Below, piece after piece: positions 8,710 through 60,680 of a stretch of 64,000 nucleotides of DNA. Under the pieces are notes generated by a model. That model was given only the letters and a program-made list of their open reading frames with translations. It did no database searches and was not told the DNA's origin. Numbering within the stretch: position 1 is the stretch's first letter; each line of letters begins with the position of its first letter. Source of the stretch: Squalus acanthias (lineage: Eukaryota); assembly GCA_030390025.1 (NCBI GenBank), contig CM059430.1, positions 75,454,001 through 75,518,000 on the forward strand, read 5' to 3'. Made by a program: the position numbers and the translations under genes.

Positions 8710-10190
8710 GCAGGTTGCCAAGGGAATTGGGGGAGAAGATACCATAACGGCTTCCCATAATTTTCCAATCTTCCCTAGATGCGGGGGAGGTGCCTGAGGA
8801 TTAAAAAGTGGAAAATATGACACCATTGTTCAAGAAAGGGTGTAAAAACAATCCAATAACTACAGGCCGGTCAGTTTAACATCAGTGGTTTTAGAAACAA
8901 TAATCAAGGAAAAATTAACGGGAACTTGGAGAGGTTTAAGCTAATTAAGGAGAGCCAACACGGATTTGTAAAAGGCAGATCGTGTTTGACTAATCTAATT
9001 GATTTTTTTGATGAAGTAACAGGGAGCATCGAAAAAGGGAATGCAATGGATGTTGTCTACATGGAATTTAGGAAGGCGTTTGACAAAGTACCACATCGAA
9101 GGCTGCTTAACAAAATTGAGGTTTATGGAATAGGTGGGTCAGTGGAAGCTTGGATAATGAATTGGCTTAAGGACAGAAAACAGCGAGTTGTGGTAAATTA
9201 CTGTTTTTCATACTGAAGGATGGTCGACATTGGTGTTCCCCATGGGGCCACTGCTTTTTTTGATATAAATGACCTGGATATTAGAACAAAAAGTAGAATT
9301 TCTAAAGTAGCTGATGACACCAAACTGGGGGGGTGGGGTGGCAAAAGGTGAGAATGATACCAATCGGCTGCAACAGTGCATGGAAAGGCTGGCAGAATGG
9401 GCAGGAAAAGTGGCAGATGGAATTTAATACAGAGAAGTGTGAGGTGATTCATTTTGGCAGAAGGATTAGGGAGAGGCAATATACACTGAATGGTACAGTT
9501 TTAAAGAGTGTGCAGGGACAGAGGGACCTGAGAGATATAGTGCATAGGTCCCTGAAGGTGGCGGGACATATTGAGAGAGTGGTTAGCAAAACGTATGTGA
9601 TCGTGGGCTTCATAAATCGAGGTATTGAGTACAAAATTAGAGAAGTTATGTTGAATCTTGATCGAGCGCTGGTTCGGCCACAATTGAAGGATTGCATCCA
9701 GTTCTGCTCATCACACTTTAGGAAGGATGTGAAGGCATTTGAGAGTGTTCAGAGGAGATTTACCAGAATGGTTTCGGAGATGTGGGTTCTTAGCTACAAG
9801 GGCAGGTTGAAGAAGCTGTATTTGTTTTCATTAAGGCAAAGGAGGTTGAGTGGTGATTTGATAGATGTGTACAAGATTATGACGGGTTTGGATAGCCTGG
9901 AGGGGAAAGGCTGTTCCCACTAGTTGATGGTACAAGGACTTGGGACACAGATGTTTTGGGCAAGAGATACATGGGGGATGTGAGGAGAAACTTTTTTATG
10001 CAGCGTGTGGTGAAATCCTGGACCTTGCTGCCGACGGAAGTGGTGCGAGGAGAGACACTCAACGTTGTCAAGGGGAGACTGGATAGGCATTTGCAGGGCT
10101 TCGGGGATAGAACGGGGGAATGGGATTGACTGCATTGTTCTACAGAGAGCCGGCACGGACTCGATGGGCCGAATGGCCTCCTTCTCTGCC
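8710..10190 (+). mobile_element. 5'-truncated CR1 LINE of a second subfamily
   Basis: QHGFVKGRSCLTNL, FRKAFDKVPH, QRRFTRM; tail gatgggccgaatggcctccttct. Confidence 0.88.
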
Positions 10191-17161: not shown

Positions 17162-17270
17162 CTTTCAATGCAGTTGATCCAGAAATGATCCGCAATAATT
17201 ATCGTCAGCATCAAAATGACCAACACACTCAATACCAACCGAACAACCATAACTGTCTTGTCAAGGGAAA
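17162..17270 (-). CDS. Transmembrane exon with positively charged Arg (activating-receptor type)
   Basis: Acceptor ttcatttcctag, donor gtaaga; encodes SLDKTVMVVRLVLSVLVILMLTIIIADHFWINCIER, phase 1 to 2. Confidence 0.85.
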
Positions 17271-18699
17271 CTAGGAAATGAATAAGAAACAGAAATGATA
17301 AACGGCGGTTTATATAAAAGGCGGCTGAGCTGAACCTCGACTTTACTCTCCGACGCCAAATAGAAAAATCGACCCCATTGTATTCCTGGTCCTGCACCCG
17401 AACAATGCAGTAGAGATTGAGAATTTCATTACAAAACCGTGAAGTTCTTTAGCTAAAAGTGTTATGAAGCTATTTTAATAGTGTTTTGCAACATGCACTT
17501 CAGAGAAAGGAAGTAAATATATTCTGCCATCCCTGTGCAGCGTTATTTGGGACAATATCCGTATTTTAATGACATTAGAATTCCGAACAATCAAGCTGAC
17601 ATTGGCTGAGACCAGAAGTATCAGATGGACTCGTCTTTTTTTTTCTCCGTAGAGATGTCCTGACTCCGCATTTACACGATAAATGTTCTTCTGGTGCTAA
17701 GCTAATTTTTTTTCCGCCGACGCTACATTGCAATATAAATGCACACTTATTTAAGTCTAATTATTGTTGAAACTCTCGGCACATTACCCATATTAGAAAC
17801 CTCAACAATTAAGGTAATTTTAGCTCGCGCCGTGACGGTGTGGTGAGACTATTGACAAGTATTAACAGCACCTCTCCGGACGGGCTCTGTCTCTGTCTCC
17901 TTCTAAAGGCTGGAACTTCATACAGTCCATTCATGTTATACTTTGTGCTTGTCGCTATGCCGATCAAAATCTCAATCCCATATCTACACCAAGTGAGGTT
18001 GAGAGTCCCCGGGTAAAACTCAACGGTTTTTCACGCTAGATTCAGAGCATAGAAATTTAATTCTGGTACTTTGGAGAAAATCCTCAGCTGAGTTGGTGGA
18101 ATCGTCGGAAAAAAATGGTTAAGAAACAGCATTTGGGCTATTTTGTTCTTGCGTTTACCAATTATCTTCTCTTCATTTGGAGCCTTTAAACGGGATAGCA
18201 TTAATGTATCAGTGTTGAATGACTACCGCAAAATTGTATTAATTACATAAAAAATAATTAATCAAGAGAACTGCGCATTTGAAGCGCAGCTTCGTTTATG
18301 TTCGAGAAACTTCACTGCATAAGATAAATTCATATCAATATGAATTGACATAAATGCCTGTTCAAATGTCCCTTGTCTATTGTATTATTATGACTTGACA
18401 GTATTGGTAAAAACTTCAGTTGTTACAAATCCAATATAACTTTCAAAATTGGAATGTTGTTGCGTTTTCAAATAACAGTCATAGTTGTCATGCAATTTTC
18501 CACTAAATATTCTGAAGAAATATCAAGTCGGTTACAATATCAATAGACATTGTCTCAGTTGTATCTTGCTATGTCTTTGATGTGACCTGATTGCCTTTTG
18601 TCACACCTCGGCAGATAAACAGTCAGGGTGATTTAAATGTAGTCGTCTGCTTTTGTAAGTAACACATGCATTGTTCTCTATCTATATATGCTTTGGCGA

Positions 18700-21788: not shown

Positions 21789-24700
21789 CTACAGTTCAAG
21801 GTGTTGGTGAGAATGTCGGCACGTTACTTTTTTAGAAATCGGAACAATGAATCTCTCACTAGCTGTATGCGTCAGTGTCAGGTGAGACACTTGACAAGTA
21901 TAAACAGTCCCGCTCCGGACGGGCTGTGTCTTCTTCAACAGGCTGGAAACTTCATATAGTCCGTTGATGTTCAACTTTGTACTTGTCACTATGCCGATCA
22001 CAATCTCAATTACATCTTTATACCAAGTGAGGTTGAGAGTCCCCGGATGAAACTCATCCGTTTTACACACGATATTCAGAGCAGAGGTGTTTAATTCAGG
22101 TACGTTGGAGAAAATCCTCAGCGGAGTTGGCGGAACTGTAGAAATAAAACAGGTCAGAAATAGCATTTGGTCTATTTTGTTCTTGAGTTTACAAATGATC
22201 TTCTCTTCATTTGGAGCCTTTAAAACGGACGTCATTAATGTATCTGAGTATTGAATGACTGACGCGAATTTTTTATTCATTACATACAAATTAATTAACT
22301 AAAATATTTCGGAAATAATACAATGTTTTACTTCTTGTAGGCTTCGCAAAATCCCCCAGAAAATAGAACAGAGCCCTAAAGGGAGTGATTTTTGGACTTT
22401 TCATACAAGCTTGGGATGATGGGGCCTAAGTGAAGTAATTTAATGTAAAAACCTAAAGATCAGGGAAGAAAAAAAACCTGAGGAAACTGACGTGTTGAAT
22501 CTTACTGTTGGGAGAGAAACCTTTCACAGACACAAGCTGCGAGGGGCGTGGCCGGGCAGTGAACAGATCAAGCTGTCTGGGAATTGCTTACACTGCAAAT
22601 CCTACCAAGGTGCAAGAGACAAAGCAAAAACTCACAAACACATTCAAATATGAATCCCCAGGGGCAAACAAGATGCTGGAAATCTAAAAACGATGCAATG
22701 ACAATAAAACTTAGATCACACAGTTTCATAGCCATTATCCCATCAAAAAAATCAATCAACCAGGTATCCACAGAACAAATTAAAAAACCCGCCAACAGTC
22801 CTAGGACAATAAGGTGGAGATTTGGCTGTGTTTAAATCGGAAAACGATCAAGTCATGTTTAACACTGAGCAAAAGCCATCGGAACTGGCAAGCCCGCCAA
22901 AACTAGACAATTGGACTTAGCAAGCTTCATTTGCAACCAAAAGGAATCCGTTTTAGTAAGGGTTATTTGGGCGCAAAAAAGAAACAGTATAATTTGAATC
23001 CTGTGCCATAATCTCTCTCTTTTTCGGACTGGCTGATGATGCGGACACAGTGCAAAACCTACCACAAGCCACGAGGAAGAAGGCCAGAAGAGCAGCACGC
23101 AAGAAGAAACCAGTGCGACTGCCTCAGTGACCATCTGACACCTCGCAGCAACAAGGGCCTTACGGAGTCTTTTTTAAACAAAAGACTCTAATATCCTGTC
23201 AAGGATTCGTTGGTGAGCATTATCCCTGATCTCCTGAAACTAAAAACCTAGCCAGATAGTGGGATCTTTGGGAGGGATAAGGTTTTGTTTGATATATTGG
23301 GCCAAAAATTGATCCCGCTGCACGAGAGTATGCAGTGCGTACTCTCGCGTATTCTCTCTCCAATTGCCGATTTTCTGCATGCACTGCGCATGCGCTGAAA
23401 ACCGGCACTTGGTCTTTGGAAAAGGGGGCGGTTCCTCGGTGCACCGCGTGCGCGCTACAGGCTGCGCGCACGCTGTGCACTTAGTGCTTTGGACGCACAG
23501 GTAAGGACGGAAGATTTTAGAAACGAAAAAAGGAGGAGTAAGACCCACTTTTAACAAGGTGAGTAGTGAATTAAGTATTATTTTGAATTTTTTTTAACAG
23601 GTATATCTTTTTTAGAGACTTTAAAGAAAGGTAAGTTTATTTTTATAACTTTTTAAAAGATTTTAAATTTTTTCAAAAATTTAATTTTTTATTTAAAATG
23701 TTTAATTTATTTAACTATACTTATTTTATCAATGTGATGTTTTTTTTTAAATTTAATTGAGGTTTAGCTGTTATTTTGGGGGTGTGTAAGATTCATAGCT
23801 TTCACAGCACATATGTGAAACTTATGATTGGAAGATGGTGTGCTGCCATTGGCTCTAACTGAGTCACGTGATCCCACAGCTCGCACGAATTCACTACCCC
23901 GGCGGGATACGCAAGCACTGCCCAGCTGATGTCTATAACATCAAGTTCGTGCGAGCTGGATCTGAAAAAGCCAACCCGGAGTGAGAGATCGCGCCTGCTC
24001 CTTACCCCCGCGGGAACAGAGCGAGATCAATTTCTGGGCCATAGACATTTCCCTCGCTTGTACCGTGTGCTCCCCAAATCTTTGTTTAAGTAATAAGTAT
24101 GTTCCAAGTTTGTTACCTTTTCTTTTAATCAAGTAAAATTTCTTTCATCAGAATCTGTCGTTTACTGCAATTTTGTTCACAACCCTAAATAAGTCCAAAG
24201 TCTAGGAACCGGAGGGTTGTGGGAGCGATTAACATACCCCTTACACTTCTATAGCAGTTTCTAGCAATATATTGCAGGGCTATGGGGAAAGAGCAGGGGA
24301 ATGGGCCAATCAGATAGCTTTTTCAAAGAGCCGGCGCAGGCACGATGGGAAAAATGGTCTCCTTCTGTGCTTATCATTCTATAACTTTTGAATTTTGATT
24401 TTTATCAATAAACCGCCAATTTAAATATTGTAATGCATCAGACCAATAGTTTAGCATGTAACAGGACGAAACATCGTGCACAGCGAACCTTCAAATCTAA
24501 TCCTGTCCCCCTCCAAAAAAATCGATTGTTATTTCAAACTAAAAAAACGCTAGTTTTGTGTCAGTTACAAAGTTTGTGTGAAATGCACAAATTCTTATTC
24601 GGCAACATTTTTTTTTAAAGTGAGGAGATTGGTTTTGCAGAATTTGAAACAGGTCATCATCTAAGACGGGAGAATTTGTAGTTTGGGAACAAAACTATAT

Positions 24701-25927
24701 TAAAAACAAAACATTGCACACCATATGTTATGTTTTAGTAAGTTTCAGTCTGAGTAAGTTCGAGTTACCTGGATAATGCTGTGTTCATCCCGAAACATAA
24801 CACGGGGATACCGCACTGATAATATGGAAGGTGTATTGGAAGTCACATTAACTAGTCGTAATTTAAAGCGCTCGGTGTGTTTTTTTAAATTTGTTTGTAT
24901 GCAGACTTCATATTTGATTAAGAAATTTAAACAAATGAGACAACGCAGCAATATCATTACAAAATGTCGTCGCTCGCGTTTTTCGTCAAAATCTCAGTAA
25001 CATTTACTGACGGGTAAACAGCACAATCGTCTAACTTTATATTATATTCTTATATAAATCTGGAAATAGATATAAAACTATTGGTGCTCAAGATAAATTA
25101 GGAGCAGATGTTAGAACTGTATAGGGCGCATTAAAGTAAATCAAGGCGTGTCGATGGAAGAGCTGCAGAAAAGACTTAAAATGATTATAGCAACACTGTT
25201 AACATGCGTTTGGAGCAAACAACTTCTTTCACACTTTGGAATCAATAAAGTTACACAATGAAAGGAAGATTCCGGTAACTATAATACACAGTATAAAAGT
25301 GAATACATATACATCAAGGGGACGCTTCAGTTCAAATATGTTTCAACATTAAGTAGCATGGATTGAATGTGTAGTTTGGTGAAGCATTTTTAGTTTAATA
25401 TTCTAACAAGAACACCACACAGCTCTGTGTAGCAACTCATTCGGCTCCACAGTTTCACTTACCGGAGACTTTGATCGTTGAGCCTGTTCCGGTTACAATC
25501 CTGCTTCCCAGGTTTGTCACTCCGCAGTAATAGACCCCAGAGTCCCACGCACTGATATTCAGGAGATGAAAGGAGGCTCCCCCTTGTTTAAAAAGGAGAA
25601 ATGTTTTCCTGCTGTCGGAGGCTGTTTGCAGAAATTTACTTTCGCCAAGTTTCCACCAATAAACACTCACATCTGAGTTATCTTTAAAAATGGGGAATGC
25701 GCAATGGAAGGTGATGTTTGAACACACGAGCAAGCTCGTGCTTTCAGGAGCCTGGGAGACTCGGAACTGAGCGTCAATAGCAACTGTCAGGAAACACAAT
25801 AATAATTATAAATAAAACATATAAATGGAATGCACGGGGATTCATGAAAAGAAAAAGAACAATAGAAAATACCTGTGCACATAATCCACAGGAGCCGTAT
25901 GGACTGAAGTACACCGGCTACGGGCAT
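21789..25927 (-). CDS. Gene B: non-rearranging VJ-C1 Ig-superfamily receptor (SIRP/NKp30-like ectodomain); activating or secreted form
   Basis: Leader 25873-25927 (MPVAGVLQSIRLLWIMCT), V 25463-25783, C1 from 22135 to donor at 21828 or stop at 21789; GT-AG phase-1 introns; leader and V exon sizes (55, 321 nt) equal gene A. Confidence 0.88.
21828..22135 (-). CDS. Gene B C1-set Ig domain exon
   Basis: VPPTPL..IVCKTDEFHPGTLNLTWYKD..NGLYEVSS.L..YTCQVSH.TL; acceptor ttctacag. Confidence 0.92.
23299..24040. mobile_element. ~750-bp non-autonomous TIR element (Harbinger-type MITE), copy 1, in gene B intron
   Basis: TIRs gggccaaaaattgatc / gatcaatttctgggcc; AT-rich core shared with the other three copies. 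Confidence 0.85.
25463..25783 (-). CDS. Gene B V-set exon with germline J-like G strand
   Basis: FRVSQAPE..TFHC..VYWWK..DSGVYYC..TGTGSTIKV; acceptor tttcctgacag, donor gtaagt. Confidence 0.93.
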
Positions 25928-26734: not shown

Positions 26735-29500
26735 AGAATCATAGACTCGTACAGGAAAGGGAGAGGCCATTAGGCCCATCATGCCTGTGCCGGTTCTTTT
26801 ACAGAGTTATCCAATTAGTCCCACTCTAAGGTCACGTTCCTATAGCCAGGCGACTGATTCCCCTTCAAGAATTTATCCAATTACCTTTTGAATGTTATTA
26901 TTGAATCTACTGCCACGGTCCTTTCAGGCAGTGTATTCCAGATCATAACAACCAGCTGCATTGGAAAAAAATCTCATTGTCTCCCCTTTTGTTCTTTTGC
27001 CAATTACCTTAAATCTGTTTCATCTGGTTACCGACCCTCCTCTCAGTGGAAACCGTTTCTCCGATCTTACTCTATCATAACTTCATGTGATTTTGAAGAC
27101 CTCTGTTAAATCTACCCATAACATTCTCTGCTCTAAGGAGAACAATCCCAGGTTGTCTAGCCTCTCCGCATAACTGAATTCTCTCATCCCTGGTTCTATT
27201 CTAGTAAATCTCCTCTGCATTCTTGCCTGGGCTCTTACCTATAGTGTGCTGACCAGAATAGCACAGAGTACTCCAGCTAAAGCCTAACCAGTGATTCATA
27301 AAGGTTTAGCATAACGTCCTTGATTTTGCATTCTATGCCTTTATTTATAAAGCCAAGGATCCCGTATGATTTTCTGAAAAGCCTCATCAACTCTTCCTGC
27401 CACCTGCAAAGATTTCTATAAAGAAAAAGAAAAGACTTGCATTTATATAGCGCCGTTTACAACCACCCAACGTCCCAAAGCGTTTTACAGCCAATGAAGT
27501 ACTTTTTGAAGTGTAGTCACTGTTGCAATGTAGAAAACGCGTCAGCAAGTTTACAAACACCTAGCTCCGACAAACAGCTATGTGATAATCTGTTGATTGA
27601 GGGATAAATATTGGCCAGGACACCAGGAATAACTCCTCTGCTCTTCTTCGAAATAGTGACATAGGATCTTTTACGTCTACCTGAGAGAGCAGACAGGTCA
27701 CCCGAAAGACAGCACCTCCGACAGTGCAGCACTCCCTCAGTAATATACTGCAGTGAGATTTTTGTGCTCAAGTTTCTGGAGTAGGACTTGAACCCGCAAC
27801 CTTCAGACTCCGCGGCGAAGGTGCTATCAGCTGTGCCACGCCTGACACGCCTGTACGAAAAACGTAGGTGTCTCTCCTCCTGCACCCCATTTAAATATTC
27901 TCATTTTGTTTATATTGCCTCTGCTCATTCGTCCTTCCAAAATGGATCACTTCACAATTCTTTGCATTTAACATTAAACTGCCTTGGATCTGCCCATTTC
28001 ATCAGTCTGTCTATGTCCTCCTGAATTCTGCTACTTTGCTCCCCACTGTTTAGTACATTTCCGAGCTCCGTGTCATCTGCAAACTTGGAAATAATTATCT
28101 GTCTACCCAAGACTAGGTCATTAATATATATCAAAATAAGCAGTGGACCGAATAACGACCCCCTAGTGGGTATTACTGTATATATCCCTCCAGTCTGAAA
28201 GGCCATATACACAACATTAACCACACTACCGTCATCAACCCTTCCCTTTATTACATCAAAGAACTCACTCAAGTTTGACACATTCGATTTTCCTTTCACA
28301 AATCCATTTTGGCTGTCATGTATTCAACATATTTTCGAAGTGAGGAATAATTTTGGCCAAGATTGTTTTCTCCAAAATTTTCCCCAACACTGACGTTACT
28401 TTGACTGGCCTGTAGTTACTGGGTTTATCCCTCTCCCCTTTTTGGACTGGGGTGTAACATTTATACCCATCCAGTCCTCTGCCACCAGTCCCATACGCAA
28501 GGCGGATTGAAAGATTGCGGCTATTTCCGAACTTACTTCCCCCAGCAACGTACTATGCATCTCAGCTGAATCGGCTGAATGTTTTACTTTGAGCGGTGCC
28601 AATCATTTAATTGGCTAAACTTTAGCTATTTTTATGCTACCTACTTTCTGTACCCATCCTCCTTTATTGTGACATTGGGAGGATCCTCTTCTTTTGTGCA
28701 GCCAGATGCAAACTATTCATTTAGTACATCAGCCATGCCCTCGGCGTCCATAAGTAGTCCCCTTGTTCTGTTTCTAATCGGCCCCACCCTTCCTTTGACT
28801 ATCTTTTTAATATTTATATGTTTATAAACGACTTTGGTTTTAGTTTTTATTTTAGCTGCTAATGTTTTCTCAGAGACTCTCTTTGCCAGTCGTGTTTGCT
28901 TTCTCGGTTCTGCTTTGCACTTTTTGAATTCTGCTGGATTCTCTGATGTATAAAAGAATTGACATTTACCATAAGCGTCCTTTTCCTGTGTAATTGTAAT
29001 CTCTATCTTTTTATTCATCTAGGGAGATCTAGCTTTGAATGCCCTTCGTGTCCCCTTCAAGTACACCAACTATCTCCTCTCTGAAGGCCTCACATTTCTC
29101 GTTTAAAGTTTTCCTGCTATGCTTAGTTTCCAATCCATCTGGGACAGATTCCTTTTCAGCTCACGAAAATTAGTCCTCTTCCAGCTGAATATCTTGACCT
29201 TATATTGTTCATGTTCCTTTCCCTAACTACTCTACACCTAATGATAGTGTGATCGCAGATTCCCAAAAAATCTCCCCCTGAAACTTACTTCACTTGCCCC
29301 ATTTTTGTCCCCAGAACGAGATCCAACACTGCTTCCTTCATATTTGGGTTGGAAACAAACTGATCAAGAAAGTTATTTTGTACACATTTCAGGAATTCAG
29401 CCCCTCATTGCATATTACTCCGTTTTTTTGCCCAGTCTAATTTAGGATAACTGAATTCTCGCATTATCACTACTCTATTGTTTTTTCATCTTTCGAAATT
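26735..29500 (-). mobile_element. Old CR1 LINE, heavily decayed, interrupted by a SINE
   Basis: Minus ORFs 27952-28299 (YINDL..SKFADDT), 28396-28602, 28713-29018; CR1 tail near 26740. Confidence 0.8.
27425..27850 (-). mobile_element. Deu-domain tRNA-derived SINE (SacSINE/AmnSINE-like)
   Basis: ccgaaagacagcacctccgacagtgcagcactccctcagta core; B-box complement cttgaaccc. Confidence 0.75.
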
Positions 29501-31749
29501 GGTGGGAGATTTTCTTCTCCTTCTTCTTCCCACATCGGATCACTTATGAAATGAGCAGAAATCGACTCTTCTTAGATTAACAGAAAATAACAGCGTTTTT
29601 AAATTTCTGTACAGGAATCCGAGTCTCCACACCCTGACTCCAGCTTTTGGAATTCCCACCTCCTTTTACCATTGCATTATTGGCTGTCCATTTATCCATC
29701 TTGGCCCCACGTTCCCTCCTTAAAGCGACTGCCTGTTCACATCTCTCTCCCTCTTTAATACCCTAATTAAAATCTTGCTCTTTGACCAATCTTTTGATTA
29801 CACTCCCTATTACTTTTTTCTATCCTGTTGCCATTTTTGAAAACCTATCTGTGGAGTCCATTGGGACGTTTTTCTAAGTTAATGGCATTGTTTGAATGCA
29901 ATTTGCTGTCGTAAATAACAAACAACTTGAAAATTAATTGCAGCAGAACTCCTTGTTAACAGGTTTGAGTGTGGATAAGACGTTCATGAAGGGCTATTGC
30001 TCAATAACTACCATTTCACAATTAAGAAACCGTGGTTTATGTTTATATATCCGGTGCAGCTTCAAACTTCTCAACAGCCCTGACTTTTCATACTATTCAC
30101 ATCTGTAATTATAGCTCAGTTTCAGTGTACCCACTTCTACAAATAGGAAACGCTGCATGTGCGCGCTTGAATGATAAATATTCTGATAACTAACATCTCT
30201 TTATAGTATACAATGGTGCGTGAGAACAGTGTGCATAACTTTGCAAGGTAAAAGACGGTTTGTGAATATGTCCGTGCCGAACAACACATCTGTTGGATAA
30301 ATTTTAATGAGTTAATTCATCAACACTGCCAACCAGCAAAATATGTTATTTGTGCGACTATAAATGTACAATGCGTGTTTCCATCAGATATAACCCCGAT
30401 TATTTTTATGCTAATTTGTGTTGGCTTCAAGCGACAATTTTCAGTTTTCCCAAATCGTTTGTGAGAGATTTACTTCCATAAATTTTCAGTACAAGGATTT
30501 ATACTGAAATATTCTAGCATGGATCATTTGTCCATGGATATGGGGCCAATTTTGTGGGCAAGGTCAGATCTGGAAGTGGTAGTAGGTTAGGAGGAGGAAT
30601 AAGGTGGATGTCTAGCTGAGAGCTGAGAGGAGTAGACAGCACACTCTACAGCTGAGAACCGATAGAATCATAATGGGAATTGTAAATCCAAAAAAAGGTT
30701 CGGGTGGGGGCGGTGGAAGGTTAAAGTACAAACAATGTGATTCCCGACCCCAATCCGCCTCCAACACGCCCATTTCCGGACTTAATGGAGGCAGGACGGG
30801 TGACTTTAAATTATAACGAGGCTGAAGCCTTTGATTTAATCTGCTGTGTAGGTTTAACTGTGGCTCGACGGGGATCCCGGCACTCGAGATTCCCAGCAGC
30901 TGCAACGAAGTGAAGACAGCCTCGGGGTGCAATCCTTATGGACTGCAAGGAGCAGAAGTGCTTCCTCCTGAACCACAAGGTTCGCCCTCTCTCCCACCCA
31001 TCTGTTCCCACTCTATTATCTGGGACCACACGGATTGGAAACCCCTTTGGTTGTGATCAGAACCACCCGTGTTCCGACCCCCAACCTCGGGTCGTGGATT
31101 GGATTCTCCGGGATTGGACTCCAAACCAAGGTCGGGGATCAAACCTCCCAGGTCCTGCGATCACGTGTAAAGCGTTCCCGACCGCCTGCAAACCATGCTG
31201 TGGAGTTAAAACTTCTGGCTAGAAGGAACTTCAAAATTCCGGCATATAATCATGCAATCATACAGTACAGAAGGAGGACATTCTGCCCATCTTGTCTGTG
31301 CGAGCTATTTGAACGCGTTGTCCAATTGTTACCACTCCCTTGGTCTTGCACCGTAATCCTGCAAATGTTGTATTTCAAGCAGAGATCTGCATCCCTTTTG
31401 AAATTTACTATTGAACAAGATTATACCAGCCTTTCAGGCAGTGTCTTCCAGATCATAACAACTCGGGTGTAACAATATTTCTGCCCATATGCACCCTGGA
31501 TTTTTTGCCAATTATCTTAAATCTGTGTCCTGTTGCCCGACCATCCTGCCAGTGGACACACTTTGGCCGGAGTTTTTCAATTGAAGAGATGCGGGTTTGC
31601 GAGTGGGTGGGCAGTTAATATTGCAGAAATTGACAGCGTGTCGGGAAGAAGCCTTCAAGCCACTGATTTTAGCCTTTTACTTTGGTGCGTTTCTCAGCGC
31701 GCCAGAGACCCGCTCGGGAGAGACGGGTAGGTAACATTCGCGCCATAGA

Positions 31750-32517
31750 ATTGCCAGCCAATTAATTTCTCCAACAAGCGAGAGGCCAACCACCTCCCCA
31801 TGACATTCAACGGCATTACCATAGCAGAATTCCCCACCATCAACATCCTGGGGGTCACCATTGAACAGAAACGTAACTGGACCAGCAACATAAATACTGT
31901 GGGAACAAGAGCAGGTCAGAGGCTAGGTGTTCTACGGTGAGTAACTCACCTCCTGACTCCCCAAAGCCTTTCGTCAATCTACAAGGCACAAGTTAGGAGT
32001 GTGATGGAATATTATCCACTTTCCTGGATGAGTGCAGCTGCAGCAACACTCAAGAAGCTCGACACCATCCAGGACAAAGGAGCCCGCTTGATTGGTACCC
32101 AATCCACCACCTTAAACATTAATTCCCTCCACCACCAGCGTACCGTGGTTGAAGTGTGTACCCTCTACAAGATGCTCTGCAGCAACTTGACAAGGCTTCT
32201 TCGGCAGCACCACCCAAACCCGCGACCTCTTCCACCTAGAAGGACAAATGCAGCACGCGCATGGGAACACCACCACCTCCAAATTCCCCTCCAAGTCACA
32301 CACAATCCTGGATAAGATGTATATTGCCGATCTTTCATTGTCGCTGGGTCAAAATCCTGGAACTCCTTACCAGACAGCACAGTGGGAGTACCCTCACCAC
32401 ACGGACTGCAGCGGCTCAAGAAGGTGGCTCACCAACATTTTCTCAAGGGCAACTAGGGATGGGCAATAAATGCTGGCTTAGCCAGCGACGCCCAGATCCC
32501 ATGAATGAATAAAAAAA
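31750..32517 (+). mobile_element. 3' fragment of L2/CR1-group LINE
   Basis: MEYYPLSWMSAA..LKKLDTIQDK; ends atgaatgaataaaaaaa. Confidence 0.85.
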
Positions 32518-43674: not shown

Positions 43675-45255
43675 GCATAGAAGCACATAAGCATAGAAGA
43701 TAGGAGCAGGAGTAGGCCATTCGGTGCCTCGAGCCTATTCCGCCATTTAATGAGATCATGGCTGAACATCCAAATTCAGTGCCATGTCCCTGCTTTCTCC
43801 CCATATCCCTTGATCCAATTAGCCTTAAGAAATATATCTATCTCCTTCTTGAATATATTTAATGAATTGGCCTCAAATGCTTTCTGTGGTACAGAATTCC
43901 ACAGGTTCACCACTCTCGGTGAAGAAATTCCTCCTCATCTCAGTCCTAAATGGCTTAGCTCTTATCCTTAGACTGTGACTACTGGTTCTGGACACCCCAC
44001 CATCGGGAACATCCTTCCTGCATCTAGTCTGTCTAGTCCTGTTGAATTTTATAAGTTTCAATGAAATCCGCTCTCATTCTACTAAACTCTAGCGAATATC
44101 AGCCTAATCGACTCAATCTCTCTCCATACGTCATTGCTGCCATCTCAGGTATCAGTCTGGTAAATCGTCGCTGCACTCCCTCGATGGCAAGAACAACCTT
44201 GCTCAGATAAGGCGAACAAAACTGCACACAATACTCAAGGTCTGGTCTAACCAAGGCCCTATACAACTGCAGCAAGTAATCCTTGCTCCTGTACTGGAAT
44301 GCTCTCGCTATGAACGCCAACATACCATTTGCCTTCTTAACCGCCTGCTGCACCTGCATGCTTACCTTCAGCGACTGGTGCACAAGGACTCCCAGATCTC
44401 GTTGCACTTCCCCTTTTCCCAATCTATTGCCGTTCAGATAATAATCTGTCTTCCTGTTTTTTGCCACCAAAGTGAATAACTTCGCATTTATCCACATTAT
44501 GCTGCATCTGCCATGCAGCTGCCCAATCACCCAACCTGTCCAAATCATACTGGAGTTTCTCTGCATCCTCCTCACAGCACAGACACACTCCCAGCTTTGT
44601 GTCGTCTGGATACTTAGATATATTACATATATTTCACTCGTCTAGATCATTAATATATATTGTGAATAGCTGGGGTCCTAGCACCGATCCCTGTGGTGCC
44701 CGATTAGTCACTGCATGCTTCTCGGAAAAAGACCCATTTATTCCAACTCTTTCCTTTCTATCTGCCAACCATTTCTCTATCCAAATCAGTACCTCAACCT
44801 AAATTCCATAAGCTTTAACTTTGCACGCTAATCTCTTATGCGGGACTTTATCGAAAGCCTTCTGAAAGTCCAAATACACCACATCCACTATTTTTCCCTT
44901 ATCTAATCTACCAGTTACATCCTCAAAAAATTCCAGTAGATTAGTCAGGCATGATTTCCCTTTTGTAAATCCATGTTGACTTTGTCCGATCCTTTCACTG
45001 TTTTCCGAGTGCTCTTGCTATAACATATTTTATGATGAACTCTAGCATTTTGCCCACTACCGATGTCAGGCTTACTGGTCTATAAATCCCCGTTTTTTTC
45101 TGTCATTTTTTTTAAATAGTGGGGTTACCTTAGCTACCCTCCAATCCATGGGAACTGTTCCAGGGTCTATAGAATTTTGAAAGATGACCAGCAATGCATC
45201 TATTATTTCTAGGGCCACTTCCTTAAGTACCCTAGGATGTAGATTATCAGGCGGT
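43675..45255 (-). mobile_element. 5'-truncated CR1 LINE (same family as 1-2080)
   Basis: Minus ORFs PDNLHPRVLKEVALEI and RPDLEYCVQFCSP; tail at ~43680. Confidence 0.92.
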
Positions 45256-45798
45256 AGTGCTTTAAAACTAGCAGAATTTCCAACAGCATTGTCCGAAACA
45301 TCTCTCATGTCTGATCTGAAATGGTGAAGGAAACTGAGGGAGAACTTTGGCGCAATCCTCACAATCTGCAGCCGTATCTTCGCCGGACGATCAACGGAAA
45401 GCTAGCACAAGCGAAGTAACGGCCAGGATCCGCCAATCTCGGCAGATTACGCCGGTCTCCCATCAGGGAACTCCGTGGAAATGCTAAGCGCAGAGCAATG
45501 AAATATGGAATGTTCCAGAAGGAGTGCATGACCTTTTCATCCCAGTTTTCCTTAGAATAGGAGGTCCCGCGGCGAGGCCGCTCCATCTGTTCGTGTAGAA
45601 ACTTAAAATTTCGAAATGGAGCCTCTTCTGGCGCATATACAACTGTTGCAACAAATCTGACTAAAGGGTCAAAGAGACATGTTCTGAACACATAGACAGG
45701 ATTTGACGCTGACGTATTTCAATTTCCGGCTCTTCAACGTTTTTACAAACCACCAGCCAGTTCACGGTCTGTCGCTCCGAGTGATCAATTGGTTCAGA

Positions 45799-48700
45799 AT
45801 GTTGGCGAGTGATGTACTTCAGTGCCTCTCTGTTCTGGGATTCATGTTCACAGGTACCTGTTGCTTCTATACCTTGCTTTCTCGCTAAACCGCAGAGCTG
45901 CTTATCATCCATTTGATACAACATGTCTTATTGGCATTTGCTGACATTGCCTGACTTACTTACTCACGCGCTTTTTCACCTGTAATATTCGCACTAATTC
46001 GGTTTTGATTTTCTTTTCCGATAGGCTCCTGCGAAAATTCGCTCAAAGTGACTCAGCTCCCTGAAGTCGCGAGCAGCAACACGGGTACAAGCGTTTCCTT
46101 TCATTGCTCAATTCCCTTATTTCAAGACGGACCACCGGTGAACGTGTACTGGTGGAAACAGCGTGATAATAAATATCTAAGCACTGGACCTGATGACAGA
46201 AAAGTAACTGGCTCCAAAACTAAATTCAGCGGCTTCCTTCAGATAATCAATGTGACTTTCCAGGACTCGGGAGAATATTATTGCACTGTCGCCCATCGGG
46301 GCAGAATAGTTGGAAACGGAACGGGATCCAATTTAACTGTCTGGGGTAAGTATAAAAGAAGCGGCGAATGAGATCGATGTGACAGTATTATTTCACGATT
46401 CCAAGAAATTCTCTATTGTGCTTTGTAGGATTCACAATGCAACTTAAATCCCAGTCATTTTATGTGTATATATTCAAATTGCACTGTTGACTGCTACTCG
46501 TTACATGCTAATTTGTAGTACAATATTACAGCAATATTAATCAAGACGAGCAGCATCGGATTTACCCCAAGTACACAGTAAGCAAGTATACAAAAGGCGT
46601 TTGAGTTTTAAATTGCAGTGTCCGTTAAGGATCTGTATAATGGCTGGCGCGTATATCCGCCGCTGTAAGCACCGATCTTACCCTATTTACTGGATTCTTT
46701 TGTCTGCGTTGGTTACGGAGGGAAGACTGTTGATATTGGGACTCAGATTCGCATATTTATAATTTAATTCTCCACAAGTTAAGATCTTTGATAGCCAAAT
46801 TGCTAATGGCTAAAGTCCGCACTGTGTAGCTGGATCCTCGGACCCCTTATATTAATCATCATTGCAGCCTCCAGAAAATATGGTTTAGCACCGAATCTTC
46901 GTGCCATAGCACCTTTCACTTGGGTAAATTATACTTCCTCATCAGATGTTATGCTCAACGGGATGGAATTTGTCCACAGCTGTACCGCAAAACAAGCGAC
47001 AATGAGTCGGCAGCCCGATATACACCACACTCAATGTTCTTTCCCATTAGAAAAGAAAATCGGCGAGCTGTAAAAGAGGCGGCCTATTCGCTGCAATCCG
47101 GTTTTCGCCTGGCTAAAGCAGTTAAAGTTACCGCCGATATAAATTTGACTTTTATGAAGATGCCGGTTACGACGTAGGTACCAATAGCGCACAGTGAACA
47201 CCAGGCCCCCACCACTACCCCAACTCCCCGCCCACATTGTGCTGTCAGGAATGGGCTGGAAGAAAGACGGTGGATGATGTCCATGTAACATTATTTTCCT
47301 CCATTTTTCTAGTTCCGCCAACTCCACTGAAAATTGTCTCTCAGGAACCTGAAAAGGATTCACCTGCGACTCTGACTCTACTTTGCACAACATCTCCCTT
47401 TTACCCGCAGAATATCAGCTTCACTTGGTATAAGGATGGAACCAAAATTACACCAAGAATAAATAACATTAATCAACCAAATACCGATGGACTATATGAA
47501 GCTTCCAGCCGGTTGGAAGAGACGCAGACTGTCGAGACCGGGACCGTTTATACCTGCATGGTGTTTCACAGTGCCCTCAAAATTCCAGCCACGGTCACCC
47601 ACATTGTCACCTTCAGGAACACAGGTAATATTTTAGATAGAATCATTGAAACTTACAGCACAGAAAGAGACCATTAGGCCCGGCGTGCCTGTGCGGGCTC
47701 TTTGAAAGAGCTGTCCAAGTTAATCCCCACACCAGCTTTTTCCCCATAACTCTGAAAAGTAGTCCTCTTCCAGTACACGTCGAATTGCCTTTTGTAAATT
47801 CCTACAGGAAACTGGTTCCACCAACCTTTCTGGTAATGCGTTCTGGATCCTAACAATACTTCGTGGGAAAATAATTCTCCTCAATTCACCTCATGTTTTT
47901 AACCAATAATTTTAATCTACGATTGATGGTTAACGACTCACTCCGTACATAACTGCAGGCCCTTATCATTGTTATCATCCTGGTAAGCCTCCTCAAAACC
48001 TCTTCAAGAACTTGACATCCTTCCTAAATTGTGGTGCTCAGAATTGGACACAGTACTCCAGCTGAGGACTAGTCAGTGATTTGTCAAGGTTTAGCATGGC
48101 TTCCTTGTTTTTGCATTCACAGCCTCTATTTACAAATTCAATCATCCCATGTGCTTAATTAATCACCTTATCATCTTGCCCTTCCATCTTCAAAGATTTG
48201 TCAATATGCACCCCAGGTTCTCCTGCCTCTGTAAGACCCTCAAAATAGAACTATTTCGATTATACTGCCTCTCCATGTTGTTCCACCCAATGTGCACACT
48301 TCACTTGCCCGCATTAAATTGATCCAGACATGTGTCTGCACGTTTCACCACTCCATCTATGTCCTGCTGAAATCTTCTACTATCTTTTTCACTATTTACT
48401 ACGTTGCCGAGTTGTGCATCATCTGCAAACTTCAAAATTGTATTCCCTGTATCCAACTCCTGGTCATTGAGGCATATCAACACAAGCATTGGTTTTAAGA
48501 CCTATCCATGGGGGACCCCACTGCATAATTCTCTCCCGTCAGAAAAGGCATTCTTTCACCACGACATTCTGCCTCCTTTCACATAGCCAATTAAGTACCC
48601 AAATTACCACCATCCTTAAAATCCTATGCGCCTCTATTTGCCGAATAAGTCTATTGTGAGTTACATTATGAAATTACTTTTTAATGTCCATATATCTTCT

Positions 48701-51700
48701 GAACTACCTTCATCAAACGTCTCTGTTAATTCATCAAAGAACTTAATCAGGTTAATCAGACATGATTTTCCTTTAACAAATCCATGTTGGTTGTCGCTTA
48801 TTAAGCCATGCGTCTGTGAGTCAGAATTAATGTTGTCCTTACCAAGGGTCTCTAGTAATTTTCCCACCACTAACGTTAGATTTGCTAGACTTTAGGTAAC
48901 TGGTTTATCTATCGCACTTATCGTGCAAGTAAACGGTTTGCTGTGATCCATCCCCCCACCATTTGTTTACTTTTACTCAGATACAATTATCCGCGGAGTT
49001 CGGCCAGGTGTTGTGCTCCATGGTCTCTGCAACTGCTGTTCGACATCTTCTGCCCCAATGGAAGTCACGGTCCAGGTGTGGAACTGAGATGTGGGACAGT
49101 ATCCCGCAGTAAATCGCACCCTGTGATTCCAAGTCGCAACATGTCGGAGCTGGACAGCTGTCTCCAGCATTCCTTAAATCGTGTTGTAATCTTCAGCAAG
49201 CTGTAAATTTGGCAAGTGCCGTCTTTAGCCCTCTAATAAAACAACAAACTGAACATGATCGAAGAATTCAGTGGAAATAAAAATGGGGAGTAATGCACAT
49301 CTATCTTCCGATTGGCTATCGCCCATTTTACTGTAATGCACAATGTCAGAATTACTCCCTGATATCGCAGTCTTATTTCAACAAGAAACAAGCATGAAAT
49401 CACATTTGAGTTTCAGCCAAGATAAAGTAAAATTAACTATTCTTTAAGCATGAAAAATTAAACAAAGACGAACATTTTTATTGTGTTTCATAAAATTGTA
49501 CCTTAATGCAAAAAATAAATGGTAAAAATTATTTAAAATATTTTAATGTTTCTGATCTTTTAAGTCATAGTCTTATTGAATTGAACAGTTTAGGGATACA
49601 TGTTGATATATTTCATCTCAATCTCGAAGGTGGTGAGATCATCCATTACTTGCTGATTTCTGCAAGTGCAGGGGGCGGGTTGGTAGTCCTGGTGCTGTCT
49701 GTCATCATTGGGAAGCAATGTGTCTCCAAGAAAAATAAAGGTAAGAAAGAATTTAGACTTTTTACTAAAGCAAGAACAACTTTCAAAGAGAGTGTGAACG
49801 AGAACTTCCTGTTACATGCACAAAGAATGTTAGTTGATTGCATTTAAAAGGTTCAAAGAACAGTTACTCTGTCTCACAGGAACAGGGGCGTTTGCTGAAA
49901 GGGTTTTTTAACTATATGGGACGCTCCACAGTCACCCCAGTCTGCTTCATTTAAAAAAATTGCAGCACCTGATGTATTTAATATGGGTTTAATCACTACC
50001 GGTGTAGCGGTAAATTCGAATTTCTGAAATGTGGTGGAATTTTCCGAGTTCCCCCAGCCAGCGGCAGCGACTGGCGGGATCTTTACTGGAAAATCTATTT
50101 TAATTTTTTGCCAATTTACGCCCATTCGGGACAAGGAACGTAGAATTGTGGGTAGTTCCCCCCGCGATTTTCCAATCAGGATCGCGCAGGGTCCGAGGCA
50201 ACACCGGCATCTGAAAAATCCATTGTCAAACACAGGTCGGAAACCAACAAATCCTTCAAATGTGATATCTAGATCATTTTATACCTTACATTGAATCTAC
50301 CCGAAGTGTCTTTCCAGGCTGAGTAAATGCCTCATTGTAAAGTCATGAATTTAATTCATTACCAGGAGCGCTGAACGATGGCGAAAGATCCGACTATCGC
50401 GAACAGCCGGTATGTGTGTATGATTCATTCTAATATATCTCAGATATTAACATATATATAACAGTAGTAATCTATTTAAAGCAATATGTTGTCACGTTAT
50501 AATCTATTGCTCTCAAGATTCATACAAAAATAGCGCAGATTGAATTCAGCGCTTATGGAAAAAATCTTCGTCAATAGGTCAGAGGCAGCTGAATTTTAAA
50601 TGTCATCTGCTGATGGCGAATAAACATATTGCTTAAAAGTTACCATCAACCGTAATTAATAATAAGGAACTGTTTTTGCCTCCTGGACACAGCGGACAGT
50701 ATGTTGGCGGTAGTCCATAATACTGTGCCCAATAACTAACTCTGAACTTAATCCACAGTACGCGAGTTCAAATCCTATCATTGTAGTTTGAGATTTTGAA
50801 TTCAGGTTTCAAAATATGTTAATAAATGATGTTATCTGAAGCTGTGGGATTGTCTTAAAAAGTCAGGGAATGAAACCTGCCATTCTTACCCGGTCTGCAC
50901 TCTATGTGACTCCAGTCCACACCAAGGTGGGTGACTCTCAACTTCCCCCTGAAGTCGCCTCTGAATCTCGCCACCAGCAACTTCTAAGGGAAACCAGGGA
51001 TGGGCAACAAACGCCGACCTTGTCAGCGATGCCCTCATCTCGAGAATTAATACAAATTCCGGCACAATATCACAGGCTGGCGGTGCCAGTTAAGCGATTT
51101 GTTGTTCCCGGAATTTTGGGTGAATTTGCGGAAATGTTAAGAAGACGTGGACGAGTAATCGGCATTTCCTTCAGTCGCCGCATTCTCCCGTCATAATATC
51201 CATCTGAATTTGGAAAACCTCCAATGTCAACGCCCAACCTTCACCTCCTTGGAAGGAATTTGCTGCTTCACCGCACAGGCCGCGAGACCAAGCAAGCACG
51301 GAGATGCTTATCGAAAATTGAAGTTATTTGCCCGCCATCTCCCACGTATTGAAATCAATAGACAGAAAAGAGTTGGCATAAATTCGAAGTGTTCCAATAT
51401 ATACCGCCTATTACCTGTGATTACCGATCCCGGGAAGCGTCCGCGAAAATTCCAGCCAACAAGAGAGTTATTCCAACTAAATCTGATTCTTTCAGTGTAT
51501 ATGTCTTTCCTGATATCTGTTCGACATTTGTTTTCCATTTGTATCCCTAGTTCTAATTCATCTCCGTGATTGAGTCATCAGGGTCTGCCTTAAAGTGAAA
51601 GACAGATAGACATTGATGTAGATAGAAATATATAAATATAGATATATATATAGTTATAGATATAGATATAGATATAGATATTGTGACATTGTGGATGAAT

Positions 51701-53227
51701 TAATAGCTGAACATAAGATTCCATGTGTAGTCCAGAAGCTGAATGACAAGCTTTAATATAATCTCTTGTATTCCATGGCCTTATCCTTGATTGCAGAATT
51801 ATAATCGTTGCTTACTTTTCTGGACATTGAAAGTGACCTGACTCTTGTTAACCCCAGACCCCTTTATGTCTCATTGTGCTAATTCAATTCCATCCATTGT
51901 ATAACTACGATACACATTTACAATTATGCCTAAAGCTCAACTTTATAAAGTAGCTAAATGGTTTTACTATTTTTTTTGTGCAACGTAAGTGTAACTTGAA
52001 GTATGGAAACCTTGTCAGATGGAGATTATTTCAACCAGACTACTCCTATCAATGGACTTCAGAGATGAACATTGATCCTTTATTTTACTTTACTTTCTTA
52101 AAATGTAAATTTCGAGGGATTTCCGTAACTTCGGCGGGACACCCGTGGAAGTCCCAGACAAACGACGTAAAGGGCGCGTTCATCCTATTATACAGTTTCT
52201 ATGGGGATTCTGGTGGTCATCCAGCAAACTGAGATCAGGAGACCGGTTGTAGCTCCGCGCATTTTGGGGGTTGATTTTCGTCTTTACCGTCTGGGCGCTA
52301 AGCAATGCATGGGCAGAAAGGGATATCTGGTGGGGAGGATCGCTCGTCCTGAGGGAATTTCTTTGCATTCCTTTCAATGATAGGAAAATTCGCGGGTTCT
52401 GTTGCCAGCAGCGGCTCCGCAAGATTTTCCAATCCATGCTCAGCCCTGACGATGCTTCAGGTCCAGGCGGTAAAGAAGAAACCTCCTTTCACCCTCCCCA
52501 AACTGTTCGAATATTTGTGATAATGCGACGGATTCCGCCTGCTGGGCACTGACGGCGCGGACACGGAGCACAAACAAGGAGGTTGTGGCAGCCGTGACTG
52601 ATATTCCATCCATTCATTTATGTGATGGACTCTGGACCTGCTGTTTTCGGGCCTGCTCGCATCCTTCTGCGCAGGGAGCGCCCAAACGTGGTATCTGCCC
52701 TAACAACATAACAAGATATATTTTTCCGTTCCTTCCATGCAGGGAGCAGCTGATGTGATGGCGTCTTATGCCACATTAGATCTGAACAAGTCCCGGAAAG
52801 GTCCAAGAGCGAAGCATCAAGAGAGGACAGTGTATGCCCAGGTAGGGCTCAGGAGCAGAACAAAGAGTCACAGATTACCTGTAATTAATGGGCATGCGGG
52901 ATAGTGTAAGAAAGACCTTGAATAGTACTATGGTAATCTTTTATATTTAATTTGTAATTATATCCTCGCTAATTCTGCGAGGCTCCAGCTATTCCAATGA
53001 ATGTGCTAAACATTATTCTTTAAATAACTACAATATCGAAGTAATGATATTCCCAATAATTGATTTCACAGACCAAGCAACGGGCGCCAGATCATAAGTT
53101 GACCTACGCTGCACTAGACATGACAGGCTTCAAGAAAACATCAAAGCCTAATGTTAAGGATAAGAGCACGGAGTATGCTCAGCTACAGATGAAAAATCAA
53201 AGAGCAGACGTTATTTACACGGAATGA
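45799..53227 (+). CDS. Gene A: inhibitory VJ-C1 Ig-superfamily receptor, SIRP-alpha-like tail, 365 aa
   Basis: Exons 45799-45853, 46025-46345, 47313-47624, 49630-49740, 50366-50409, 52743-52841, 53072-53227; all GT-AG, compatible phases, 1098 nt open; leader, V, C1, uncharged TM, tail with ASYATL, TVYAQT, LTYAAL, TEYAQL, VIYTE. Confidence 0.9.
46025..46345 (+). CDS. Gene A V-set exon with germline J-like G strand
   Basis: LKVTQLPE..SFHC..VYWWK..LQIINVTFQDSGEYYC..GNGTGSNLTV; ttttccgatag / gtaagt. Confidence 0.95.
47313..47624 (+). CDS. Gene A C1-set exon
   Basis: [43 protein letters not shown]. Confidence 0.95.
47640..48900 (-). mobile_element. Decayed CR1 LINE in gene A intron 3
   Basis: QHGFVKGKSCLINL and LKFADDAQL on minus strand. 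Confidence 0.8.
49630..49740 (+). CDS. Gene A transmembrane exon
   Basis: YLLISASAGGGLVVLVLSVIIG followed by basic KQCVSKKNK; donor gtaaga. Confidence 0.9.
50690..51050 (+). mobile_element. tRNA-derived SINE (same family as 2750-3188)
   Basis: gagttcaaatcc B-box; tail gggatgggcaacaaacgcc...gcgatgccctcatc. Confidence 0.65.
51610..51682. repeat. (ATATAG)n-type microsatellite
   Basis: gatatagatatagatatagata. Confidence 0.85.
52743..53227 (+). CDS. Gene A cytoplasmic ITIM/ITSM exons (52743-52841 and 53072-53227)
   Basis: GAADVMASYATLDLNKSRKGPRAKHQERTVYAQ | TKQRAPDHKLTYAALDMTGFKKTSKPNVKDKSTEYAQLQMKNQRADVIYTE*. Confidence 0.9.
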
Positions 53228-58249: not shown

Positions 58250-60680
58250 ACGCAAAAATCTCCCGGAAATAGTTGAGTACAAAGGGTCTAGTGAGGATGA
58301 AGAACTGAAAGAAATGAGTATTGTAAAAAAATAGTAATGGACAAAGTAATGGCACTGAAAGCCCATAAATCTCCTGCACCTGATGGCCTACATCCTAAGG
58401 TTTTGAAAGAGGTGGCTATGGAGATAATGGCCCAGAAATTAGGGTTGGAGACCTCCCGCGGGAGCAAGCCCCCGGCCTGCACTTACATAGCACGCCTGCC
58501 GTTGTGCTGTGGGCCTGCGTGGGATTCCGATCCTGGGCCTCCTCCAGCTGCCCGTGTGCAGTGCTCGCGTATCCCAGCGGGGAAGCTAGTTCGCAGCATC
58601 CCCTGTGATCACGTGGGCCATGGGGAGCCAATCGAAGCAGGGATTCTCCATTCATAGAATTGACAGCAAGTCCTGTCAAATGTAGGATTAGAGATCGGCC
58701 CCAAAACCGAAGTAAAAGTTCAAATATTTTTTTTTAAAACACCACATTTTTCAAATAACTATAAATTACATAAATTAACTATTTTAAACAAAAATTTAAT
58801 GTTGTGAAAAAATTAATTAAAGTTTTTAACGGGGCTAAAAATAAACTTACCTTTCTTTAAAGTATTTAAAAATGAAAACCTGTGGTGAAAATGCTTCAAT
58901 TTTAATTAATTCACCACTTACCTTGTTAAAAGCACGCCTTGCGCCTGCTTTTTCCATGTGCAGCTGTTAGGGACATACCCGCACGGAGAAACCTGTAAAA
59001 AAAAGCGGAAGTTCGATGCGTACGTGCTGCCTCTCCGGTGCACGACGTTGACCTGTGAACCCCTTCCTTCAAGGGAACGGAAGTTCCGGTATCCATCGCA
59101 TGCGCAGCGCATCCGCGAAACCGGCACTTTCCTTGGCCTTACGGGTGAGTACAGAGCGCGTACTCCCCCGTGGGGACCCGAATTTCTGGGACAATGAATG
59201 CATTGATTGTCATCTTTCAAAATTCCATAGATTCAAAACGGTTTCCACGGATTGTAAGGTAGCAAATGTAAACCCACTATTTAGGAAAGGAGGGAGAGAT
59301 AAACGGGAAACTACGTACTAGTTAGCCTGGCATCAGTAGTAGGGAAAATGCTAGAATCTATACTTAAGAACGTTGTAGCAGGGCACTTAGAAAATAATAA
59401 TAGGATTGGGCATAGTCAACACGGCTTTATGAAAGGGAAATCAGGTTAGTGGTTGTAACTAGCAGAATAGATAAGGGGAACCAGTGGATATGAAGTATTT
59501 AGATTTTCAGAAGGCATTTGATAAGGTGGCGCACAAGAGGTTATTAAACAATATTAGGGCTCTTGGGATTGGGGGTAATATAATAGCATGGATTCAGGAT
59601 TGGTTAACCTGCAGAAAACGGAGAGCAGGAATAAACGGGTCATTTTTGGGTTGGCAGGCTGTAACGTGTGGGGTACCGCAAGGATCAGTGCTTGGGCCTC
59701 AGCTATTCACAATCTGGATTAGGGGACCAAATGTAATATATCCAAATTAGCTGATGATACAAAGCTGGCTGGGAATTTATGTTGTGAGGAGGCTGCAAAG
59801 AGGCTTCAAGGGGATATAGAAAGGCTAAGTGAGTGGGCAAGAACATGGCAAATGGAATATAATGTGGAGAAATGTGAAGTTTTTTACTTCAGTAGGAGAA
59901 ATAGAAAAGCAGATTATTATTCAAATGGTGTGAGATTGGGAAATGTTGGTGTTCAGAGGGACCTGGGTGTCCTTGTACACGAATCACTGAAAGTTAACAT
60001 GCAGGTACAGCAATCAATTAGGGAAACAAATGGTATGTTGGCATTTATTTCAAGAGGGTTTATTTTAAGCATAAGGACGTCTTAATGCAATTATATATTG
60101 GACCTTGGTGAGACTACACCTGTAGTATTGTGTACAGTTTTGGTCTCCTTACATAAGGAAGGATATACTTGGCATAAAGGGAGTGCAACAAAGGTTCACT
60201 AGACTGATTCCTGGGATGGGGCTTTGTCCTATGATGAGAGATTGAGTAGACTAGTCCTATATTCTCTAGAATTTAGAAGAATTAGAGGTGATCGCATTGA
60301 AACATGCAAAATTCTTACTGGGCTTGACAGGGTAAATGCAGGGAGGATGTTTCTCCTGGCTGGGGAGTCCAGAACCAGATGTCACAGTCTCAGATTAAAG
60401 GGATCGGCCATTTAGGACTGAGATGAGGAGAAATTTCTTCAGTCGGAGGTTGTTCAATATTTGGAATTCTCTACCCCAGAGGGCTGAGGAGGCTCAGTCG
60501 TTGAATATATTCAAAACAGAGATCAATAGATTTATGGAGAGTGTGGGAATCTGGGGAGATGTGGATAGTGCAGGAAAGTGGAGTTGAGGTAGAAGATCAG
60601 CCATGATCTTATTGAATGGCGGAGTAGGCTCGATGGGCCGAATGGCCTACTTCTGCTCCTATTTCTTATGTTCTTATGAT
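58250..60680 (+). mobile_element. 5'-truncated CR1 LINE interrupted by a MITE
   Basis: PDGLHPKVLKEVAMEI, LDFQKAFDKVAH, GVPQGSVLGP; CR1 tail at 60630-60677. Confidence 0.92.
58429..59192. mobile_element. MITE copy 3 (inverted relative to copy 2)
   Basis: ggcccagaaatt / aatttctgggac with AAT duplication. Confidence 0.9.

Follow-up and report, generated by a model that had tools for sequence, protein, structure and literature searches.

A shark VJ-C1 receptor from a very large family of cartilaginous fish carries a cytoplasmic tail resembling that of amniote SIRP-alpha

The 64,000-nucleotide stretch of Squalus acanthias DNA analysed here (hereafter the window) contains an intact VJ-C1-transmembrane receptor gene, gene A, which belongs to a very large family of cartilaginous fish. 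Gene A lies on the + strand and comprises seven exons with AG/GT ends throughout, whose translation gives a 365-aa open frame in the order leader, VJ, C1, transmembrane segment and tail. The leader exon (45799..45853, phase 1) provides the ATG and a GT donor and is followed by a V domain of VJ type contained in a single exon (46025..46345), which is recognized as V-set by Pfam, ends in a GxGSxLxV G strand and has a predicted structure with a pLDDT of 89. Next come a C1-set exon (47313..47624; Pfam E=4e-15) and a transmembrane exon (49630..49740), placed from its translation and a run contig, with a hydrophobic span that contains no charged residue. The tail is encoded by three exons: cyt1 (50366..50409, phase 1 to 0), which holds Y277; cyt2 (52743..52841), a first tail module with Y290 (ASYATL) and with Y312, whose TVYAQ motif is interrupted by the donor; and the terminal cyt3 (53072..53227), a second module with Y326 in an ITIM (LTYAAL), Y349 in an ITSM-like motif (TEYAQL), Y363 and the stop codon. 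A phase-0 intron of 230 nt separates cyt2 from cyt3.

The predicted joints between leader and V, transmembrane exon and cyt1, and cyt1 and cyt2 are present in contigs of run X1, a run only presumed to be RNA. The sole contig support for the cyt2-cyt3 joint is a 9-letter loose end, runs X2-X4 do not cover the gene A tail, and the C1-transmembrane joint was not seen in the run contigs. The V-C1 joint appears in a contig that shows several differences from gene A and is probably that of a paralog. V domain and J-like strand form one exon spliced to C1, and the split V and J of a rearranging Ig or TCR chain are absent; such a single-exon V with a J-like G strand is a feature of the SIRP family. 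The second domain is C1-set according to Pfam and not of the I type found in NITRs. Gene A has one C1 exon, as an earlier note on this DNA had claimed, and therefore lacks the two membrane-proximal C1-set domains of SIRPs.

On the - strand, the window contains a V exon of the same family (25463..25783, leader at 25873-25927), which we assign to a second gene, gene B. The C1 exon of gene B (21828..22135, -; 308 nt) terminates in a stretch of A and, in the assembly, does not keep the frame at its donor, which may reflect an allele, a pseudogene or an assembly error. A transmembrane exon of the activating type, bearing an Arg (17162..17270, -), likely belongs to gene B, and provides the paired form with a charged transmembrane segment that characterizes SIRPs, in a gene whose frame is doubtful. 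Behind the gene B C1 exon, a second, broken C1 copy (17790-18100, -) with similar flanking intron sequence is a recent tandem duplicate. A paralog at 61.81-61.82 Mb of contig C6 presents a V, a C1, a partial V, another C1 that is nearly identical to the first, and three tail modules. Both of these two-C1 cases are recent duplicates, and an ancestral V-C1-C1 form was therefore rejected as their explanation. Remnants of LINE-like reverse transcriptases were recognized by eye from open reading frames at 1300-10000, 27900-32500, 43700-45400 and 58300-60100 of the window.

A search of the genome with the V exon returned at least 127 matches (150 of the 222 candidates were scored), 121 of which sit on C6 between 57.5 and 76.9 Mb. 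Merged by hand, these matches form at least 112 loci, 38 of them with a tail match downstream; the cyt3 exon itself has 46 genomic matches. About a dozen close paralogs of gene A share 78-99% V identity with it and more than 100 are distant. Next to the cluster lie a GINS3 exon, single-exon GPCRs and a rho-class GST; the DNA just past it (C6 76.9-77.1 Mb) is highly repeated and includes one such GPCR and the rho-class GST. Elsewhere on the same chromosome, at 33.8 Mb, lies a B7-like gene with V and C1 domains, a possible ligand candidate. The family occurs in sharks, rays and a chimaera, with named relatives in Heterodontus, Chiloscyllium, Heptranchias, Scyliorhinus, Mustelus, Mobula, Narcine and Callorhinchus. 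Many of these relatives are called 'tyrosine-protein phosphatase non-receptor type substrate 1-like', that is SIRP-alpha-like, in RefSeq (same-family models in Heterodontus, Chiloscyllium, Heptranchias, Scyliorhinus, Mobula and Callorhinchus), others 'Ig lambda-like' or 'NCR3LG1-like'; all such names are automatic. The literature searched contains no study devoted to the family or to any shark SIRP, and the novelty of the family is provisional. In the ESM Atlas, the V exon retrieves generic V-set clusters, and all matches to the tail lie under 0.9.

The earlier note had read the tail of gene A as a counterpart of the four-tyrosine array of mammalian SIRP-alpha. Its four motifs are present on the + strand at the coordinates and in the order it gave, but the tail holds six tyrosines (277, 290, 312, 326, 349 and 363), of which Y326 alone forms a canonical ITIM: Y349 is in a TxYxxL context, Y290 has an A at -2, and Y312 is without a hydrophobic residue at +3. 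The four tyrosines are spaced 22/14/23 in gene A versus 24/17/26 in bird SIRP-alpha; the positions 429, 453, 470 and 496 given for human SIRP-alpha in PMC12765318 correspond to the same 24/17/26. Exons cyt2 and cyt3 are copies of one phase-0 module, made of YAxL, about 20 residues and TxYAQ/E, and 25 tail exons of the family align almost without gaps. An upstream module is present in 21 of 30 loci, with a GT donor directly after the second motif in all but one of these (20/21). The GTA used as donor in the upstream module is a valine codon in some terminal exons. Internal modules would have arisen by exon duplication, the +3 valine codon of the switch motif serving as splice donor, and this use of the codon would weaken tyrosine 2: in gene A, Y312 reads TVYAQ|T after splicing, its +3 residue being lost to the intron. 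An alternative donor that would restore TVYAQV found no support in the contigs or in the module survey of family loci. Sampled genes of the S. acanthias genome have one to three modules, and in Heterodontus (horn shark) a histidine replaces tyrosine 2 in all five two-module models, two further models having a single module. Since the number of modules varies and tyrosine 2 has decayed or disappeared, the four-tyrosine array is better described as one state of a variable repeat.

To compare this tail with all others, we built a profile of 37 positions from the 25 shark exons only and ran it over 1.84 billion proteins at E<=0.001. Of the 35 matches, 28 belong to gene A's family (14 named chondrichthyan records and 14 assigned by similarity), six are amniote tails of the SIRP-alpha type scoring 36-43 bits (four from named bird records, a fifth that clusters with a bird record and a sixth without a name), and the remaining one, an NKG2-like C-type lectin from a mammal, stands at the threshold with 35.2 bits gathered over four weak stretches. 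Outside cartilaginous fish, amniote SIRP-alpha tails are the only Ig-receptor tails to pass, and the similarity claimed in the earlier note exceeds what the motifs alone would produce. Mammalian SIRP-alpha is not among the 35 matches, nor is any tail of bony fish or amphibians, NITRs included. Both ITIM hexamers of SIRP-alpha are conserved across mammals and the devil, according to PMC5413580. Single modules reach 15-28 bits at best on the profile, which puts receptors that have a single ITIM-ITSM pair (PD-1 or Siglecs, for example) beyond the reach of the search.

The amniote signal was set against several null models, using bird tails and one unnamed tail. On the shark profile, 64 amniote tails have a median of 41.3 bits (34.5-46.5), whereas shuffles that keep positions -2 to +5 around every tyrosine average 17-23 bits (p 0.002-0.014 for five of five tails), and 2000 simulated tails with doubled YAxL+TxYA (ITIM+ITSM) motifs have their 99th percentile at 23.0 bits and a maximum of 35.1. 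In pairwise alignments, the gene A tail surpasses full shuffles of the amniote tails at p=0.001 in all five cases. A null keeping -2 to +3 gives p=0.001 for four of the five amniote tails and 0.026 for chicken, and one keeping -2 to +5 gives p values from 0.004 to 0.44, weak for two tails (0.44 and 0.059). Among 13 family tails, all beat the first of these nulls and seven beat the second at p<0.05. In pairwise comparison the tails share a median of 27 identities over 75 columns. Most of the signal comes from module 2 with its linker; the first shark module is no closer to the first amniote module. In the opposite direction, a reciprocal tail search of the S. acanthias genome found no cluster exon, and a bird-tail profile scores only 25.5 bits on the joined gene A tail. 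A search with the terminal exon alone returned one match among two candidates, and the named records among the best 120 of 748 matches to a bird SIRP-alpha query are all from birds.

Intron positions provide a further comparison, in which amniote introns are inferred from read-through proteins because none of the 198 pattern matches to amniote SIRP-alpha DNA in a metagenome scan was confirmed. Several of these read-through records turn conserved eight codons before tyrosine 1. The acceptor of gene A cyt2 is eight codons ahead of Y290, and the same distance is found in seven of nine shark class-1 modules. The intron before tyrosine 1 thus appears to be common to the shark family and amniote SIRP-alpha; the inter-module intron is not, as the amniote records span both modules without interruption.

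In the PDB, the best match of gene A by summed score is UrIg2, and the best mammalian one is human SIRP-alpha (71 bits); over V-C1, a kappa light chain scores 58 bits versus 41 for human SIRP-alpha. The SIRP V domain is absent from the top 60 of the 172 PDB matches to the family V profile. When bird SIRP V is used as query, exons on C26 (13.97-15.41 Mb), which we take to be NKp30-like, score 36, 31 and 27 bits versus 22 at most for V exons of the family. Both bird SIRP C1 domains score highest (55-57 bits) with a gene made of many tandem C1-set exons on C10 (45.59-45.61 Mb, with further sequence on C1615), versus 45 at most for S. acanthias family C1 exons; one family protein of another species reached 55 bits. 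The C1 of gene A is the best C6 match of the bird SIRP ectodomain and the eighth overall. No reciprocal best match between family and SIRP ectodomains was obtained. In trees, the family forms one clade (support 100/99 for C1, 71/80 for V) with no resolved sister, and AU tests do not reject its grouping with SIRP (p 0.30 for C1 and 0.27 for V), with outgroups from shark only and two planned outgroup rows lacking in the V tree. The C1 domain is rare outside antigen receptors and MHC. A second non-rearranging VJ-C1 gene, in two copies, lies on C5 (138.44 and 138.58 Mb); its C1 groups with Ig constant domains (96/91).

No common gene neighbourhood was found either. NSFL1C and PSMF1 mark the SIRP region of tetrapods, SIRP adjoining NSFL1C in the human order. 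In S. acanthias, PSMF1 and a gene that is presumably NSFL1C lie on C11, the latter with FAM110 as 5' neighbour, and the receptor cluster is on C6; 400 kb around NSFL1C contain no V, C1 or tail match (Pfam saw 286 of 725 unmasked ORFs). As SIRPs may have arrived at their tetrapod location only afterwards, missing synteny counts weakly. The genome search returned no match to the CD47 transmembrane family and six weak matches to its V domain, the two best being CEA-like Ig exons by eye. Human CD47 lies 3' of IFT57; the 200 kb in the corresponding position of the shark genome (93 unmasked ORFs of at least 85 aa) yielded no CD47. ZPBP-like exons and an ephrin-receptor-like repeat lie 3' of IFT57, at C4 125.96-126.01 Mb.

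Taken together, the profile search, the null scores and the apparently common intron make a common ancestry of the two tails likely, whatever form of homology is envisaged. Our analysis leans slightly towards one of these forms, in which the gene A tail and the amniote SIRP-alpha tail derive from the same ancestral signalling exon and the shark family is a sister lineage of SIRP. Amniote scores above motif-level nulls, a non-rearranging VJ-C1 ectodomain with paired Arg-transmembrane members that fits the SIRP design, and trees compatible with a joint clade all agree with it. Against a sister relationship stand the preference of SIRP V and C1 for other shark genes, the empty reverse tail search, the two weak pairwise nulls, the unmatched first modules, the lack of an inter-module intron in amniotes, the separate locations of the cluster and of NSFL1C/PSMF1, and the absence of bony-fish and amphibian tails from the profile matches. 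Part of the same evidence would suit a mosaic origin, which we hold to be improbable, where only the tail exon is homologous and the ectodomains differ in ancestry, with an NKp30-like V and a poly-C1-like C1 in SIRP and a separate VJ-C1 in the shark family: a strong tail signal accompanies Ig domains that each prefer another shark gene, and a symmetrical phase-0 exon module duplicates readily. Yet the VJ-C1-transmembrane-tail order is the same on both sides, domain scores are near saturation, and the trees do not reject common ectodomain descent.

Convergence would dispense with homology altogether: an unrelated inhibitory VJ-C1 family would have acquired the same SHP-binding motifs, together with basic spacers rich in proline, and duplicated its module independently. 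The ectodomains lacking reciprocal best matches, the absence of synteny, the variable module count and the failure of module 1 to pair with module 1 are what it would lead one to expect; the NKG2-like lectin attains the threshold through repeated ITIMs, and the controls of the comparison were shuffled or simulated tails. It is nevertheless fairly unlikely, given scores above both extended-core shuffles and simulated doubled motifs, an apparently common intron position and a C1 domain found in both families. At the other extreme, gene A could be the shark SIRP-alpha itself, reading a shark CD47 as a self marker. Its tail has the top mean score (78.2) against amniote tails among the 13 family tails, its C1 leads the C6 matches of the bird ectodomain, and RefSeq calls its relatives SIRP-alpha-like; but about a dozen close and over 100 distant paralogs, a SIRP V outside the leading PDB matches and a genome search with only weak V matches to CD47 count against this very improbable reading. 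Gene A fails two SIRP features, the two C1 domains and the reciprocal best match, and was not filed as a SIRP; it is probably not a one-to-one SIRP-alpha. The proposal of the earlier note that SIRP-alpha-type signalling could be ancestral to gnathostomes is likely for the tail, which beats motif-keeping and simulated nulls and is doubled and probably homologous to that of SIRP-alpha with a degenerate tyrosine 2; the ectodomain searches and the gene neighbourhood lean against orthology of the gene.

Among known systems, amniote SIRPs (SIRP-alpha and SIRP-beta1) come closest, with a non-rearranging VJ-type V and C1, paired inhibitory and charged-transmembrane forms, a doubled ITIM and switch-motif tail, a similar linker and a probable common intron before tyrosine 1. 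They differ in having two C1 domains where gene A has one, and the shark family in its more than 100 genes on another chromosome, its inter-module intron, its variable module number and the Arg of its activating transmembrane segment, SIRP-beta carrying a Lys. Shark UrIg, UrIg2 and NKp30 are also non-rearranging VJ receptors; UrIg has C1 domains, which group with Ig constant domains and away from gene A's family, and an ITIM is not mentioned in the description of UrIg2. NKp30 is not known to have a C1. NITRs of ray-finned fish, described in bioRxiv 2021.06.11.448072 as single-exon VJ receptors that occur in clusters and have ITIM/itim tails as well as charged-transmembrane forms, resemble gene A's family in all these respects. 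However, they combine V with I domains instead of C1 and are absent from the 35 tail matches.

Judging from its motifs, gene A most likely works inside the cell as SIRP-alpha does. Once the V domain binds a ligand, Src-family kinases would phosphorylate Y326 and Y349 above all, and probably Y290 too. In this state Y326 and Y349 would dock onto the tandem SH2 domains of SHP-1 or SHP-2, which may then damp the signals of sister receptors that have an Arg in the transmembrane segment. Given the more than 100 divergent V domains of the family, its members probably bind a variety of surfaces, self or pathogen, and not a single CD47.

We consider it an evenly balanced proposition that a proto-SIRP, combining a non-rearranging VJ-C1 with an ITIM/switch-motif exon, was already present in the gnathostome ancestor, expanded to more than 100 genes in cartilaginous fish and was kept in few copies by tetrapods. 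Tetrapods would have added a C1 and fixed two modules, and in sharks the paired family would fill the role of KIR, LILR or NITR, with braking strength set by exon copy number. A recent survey (PMC13262535) places the appearance of the SIRP family in Tetrapoda, together with that of CD28 and CD3, which suggests that its dating is conservative. If the proto-SIRP proposition is true, the origin of SIRP signalling shifts from tetrapods to the first jawed vertebrates, probably before CD47 recognition. If the tail is homologous, this checkpoint module dates to the origin of adaptive immunity, and SIRP becomes linked to the non-rearranging VJ-C1 genes discussed as relatives of antigen receptors. Gene A's family is in itself a candidate for a large paired innate-receptor family of cartilaginous fish.
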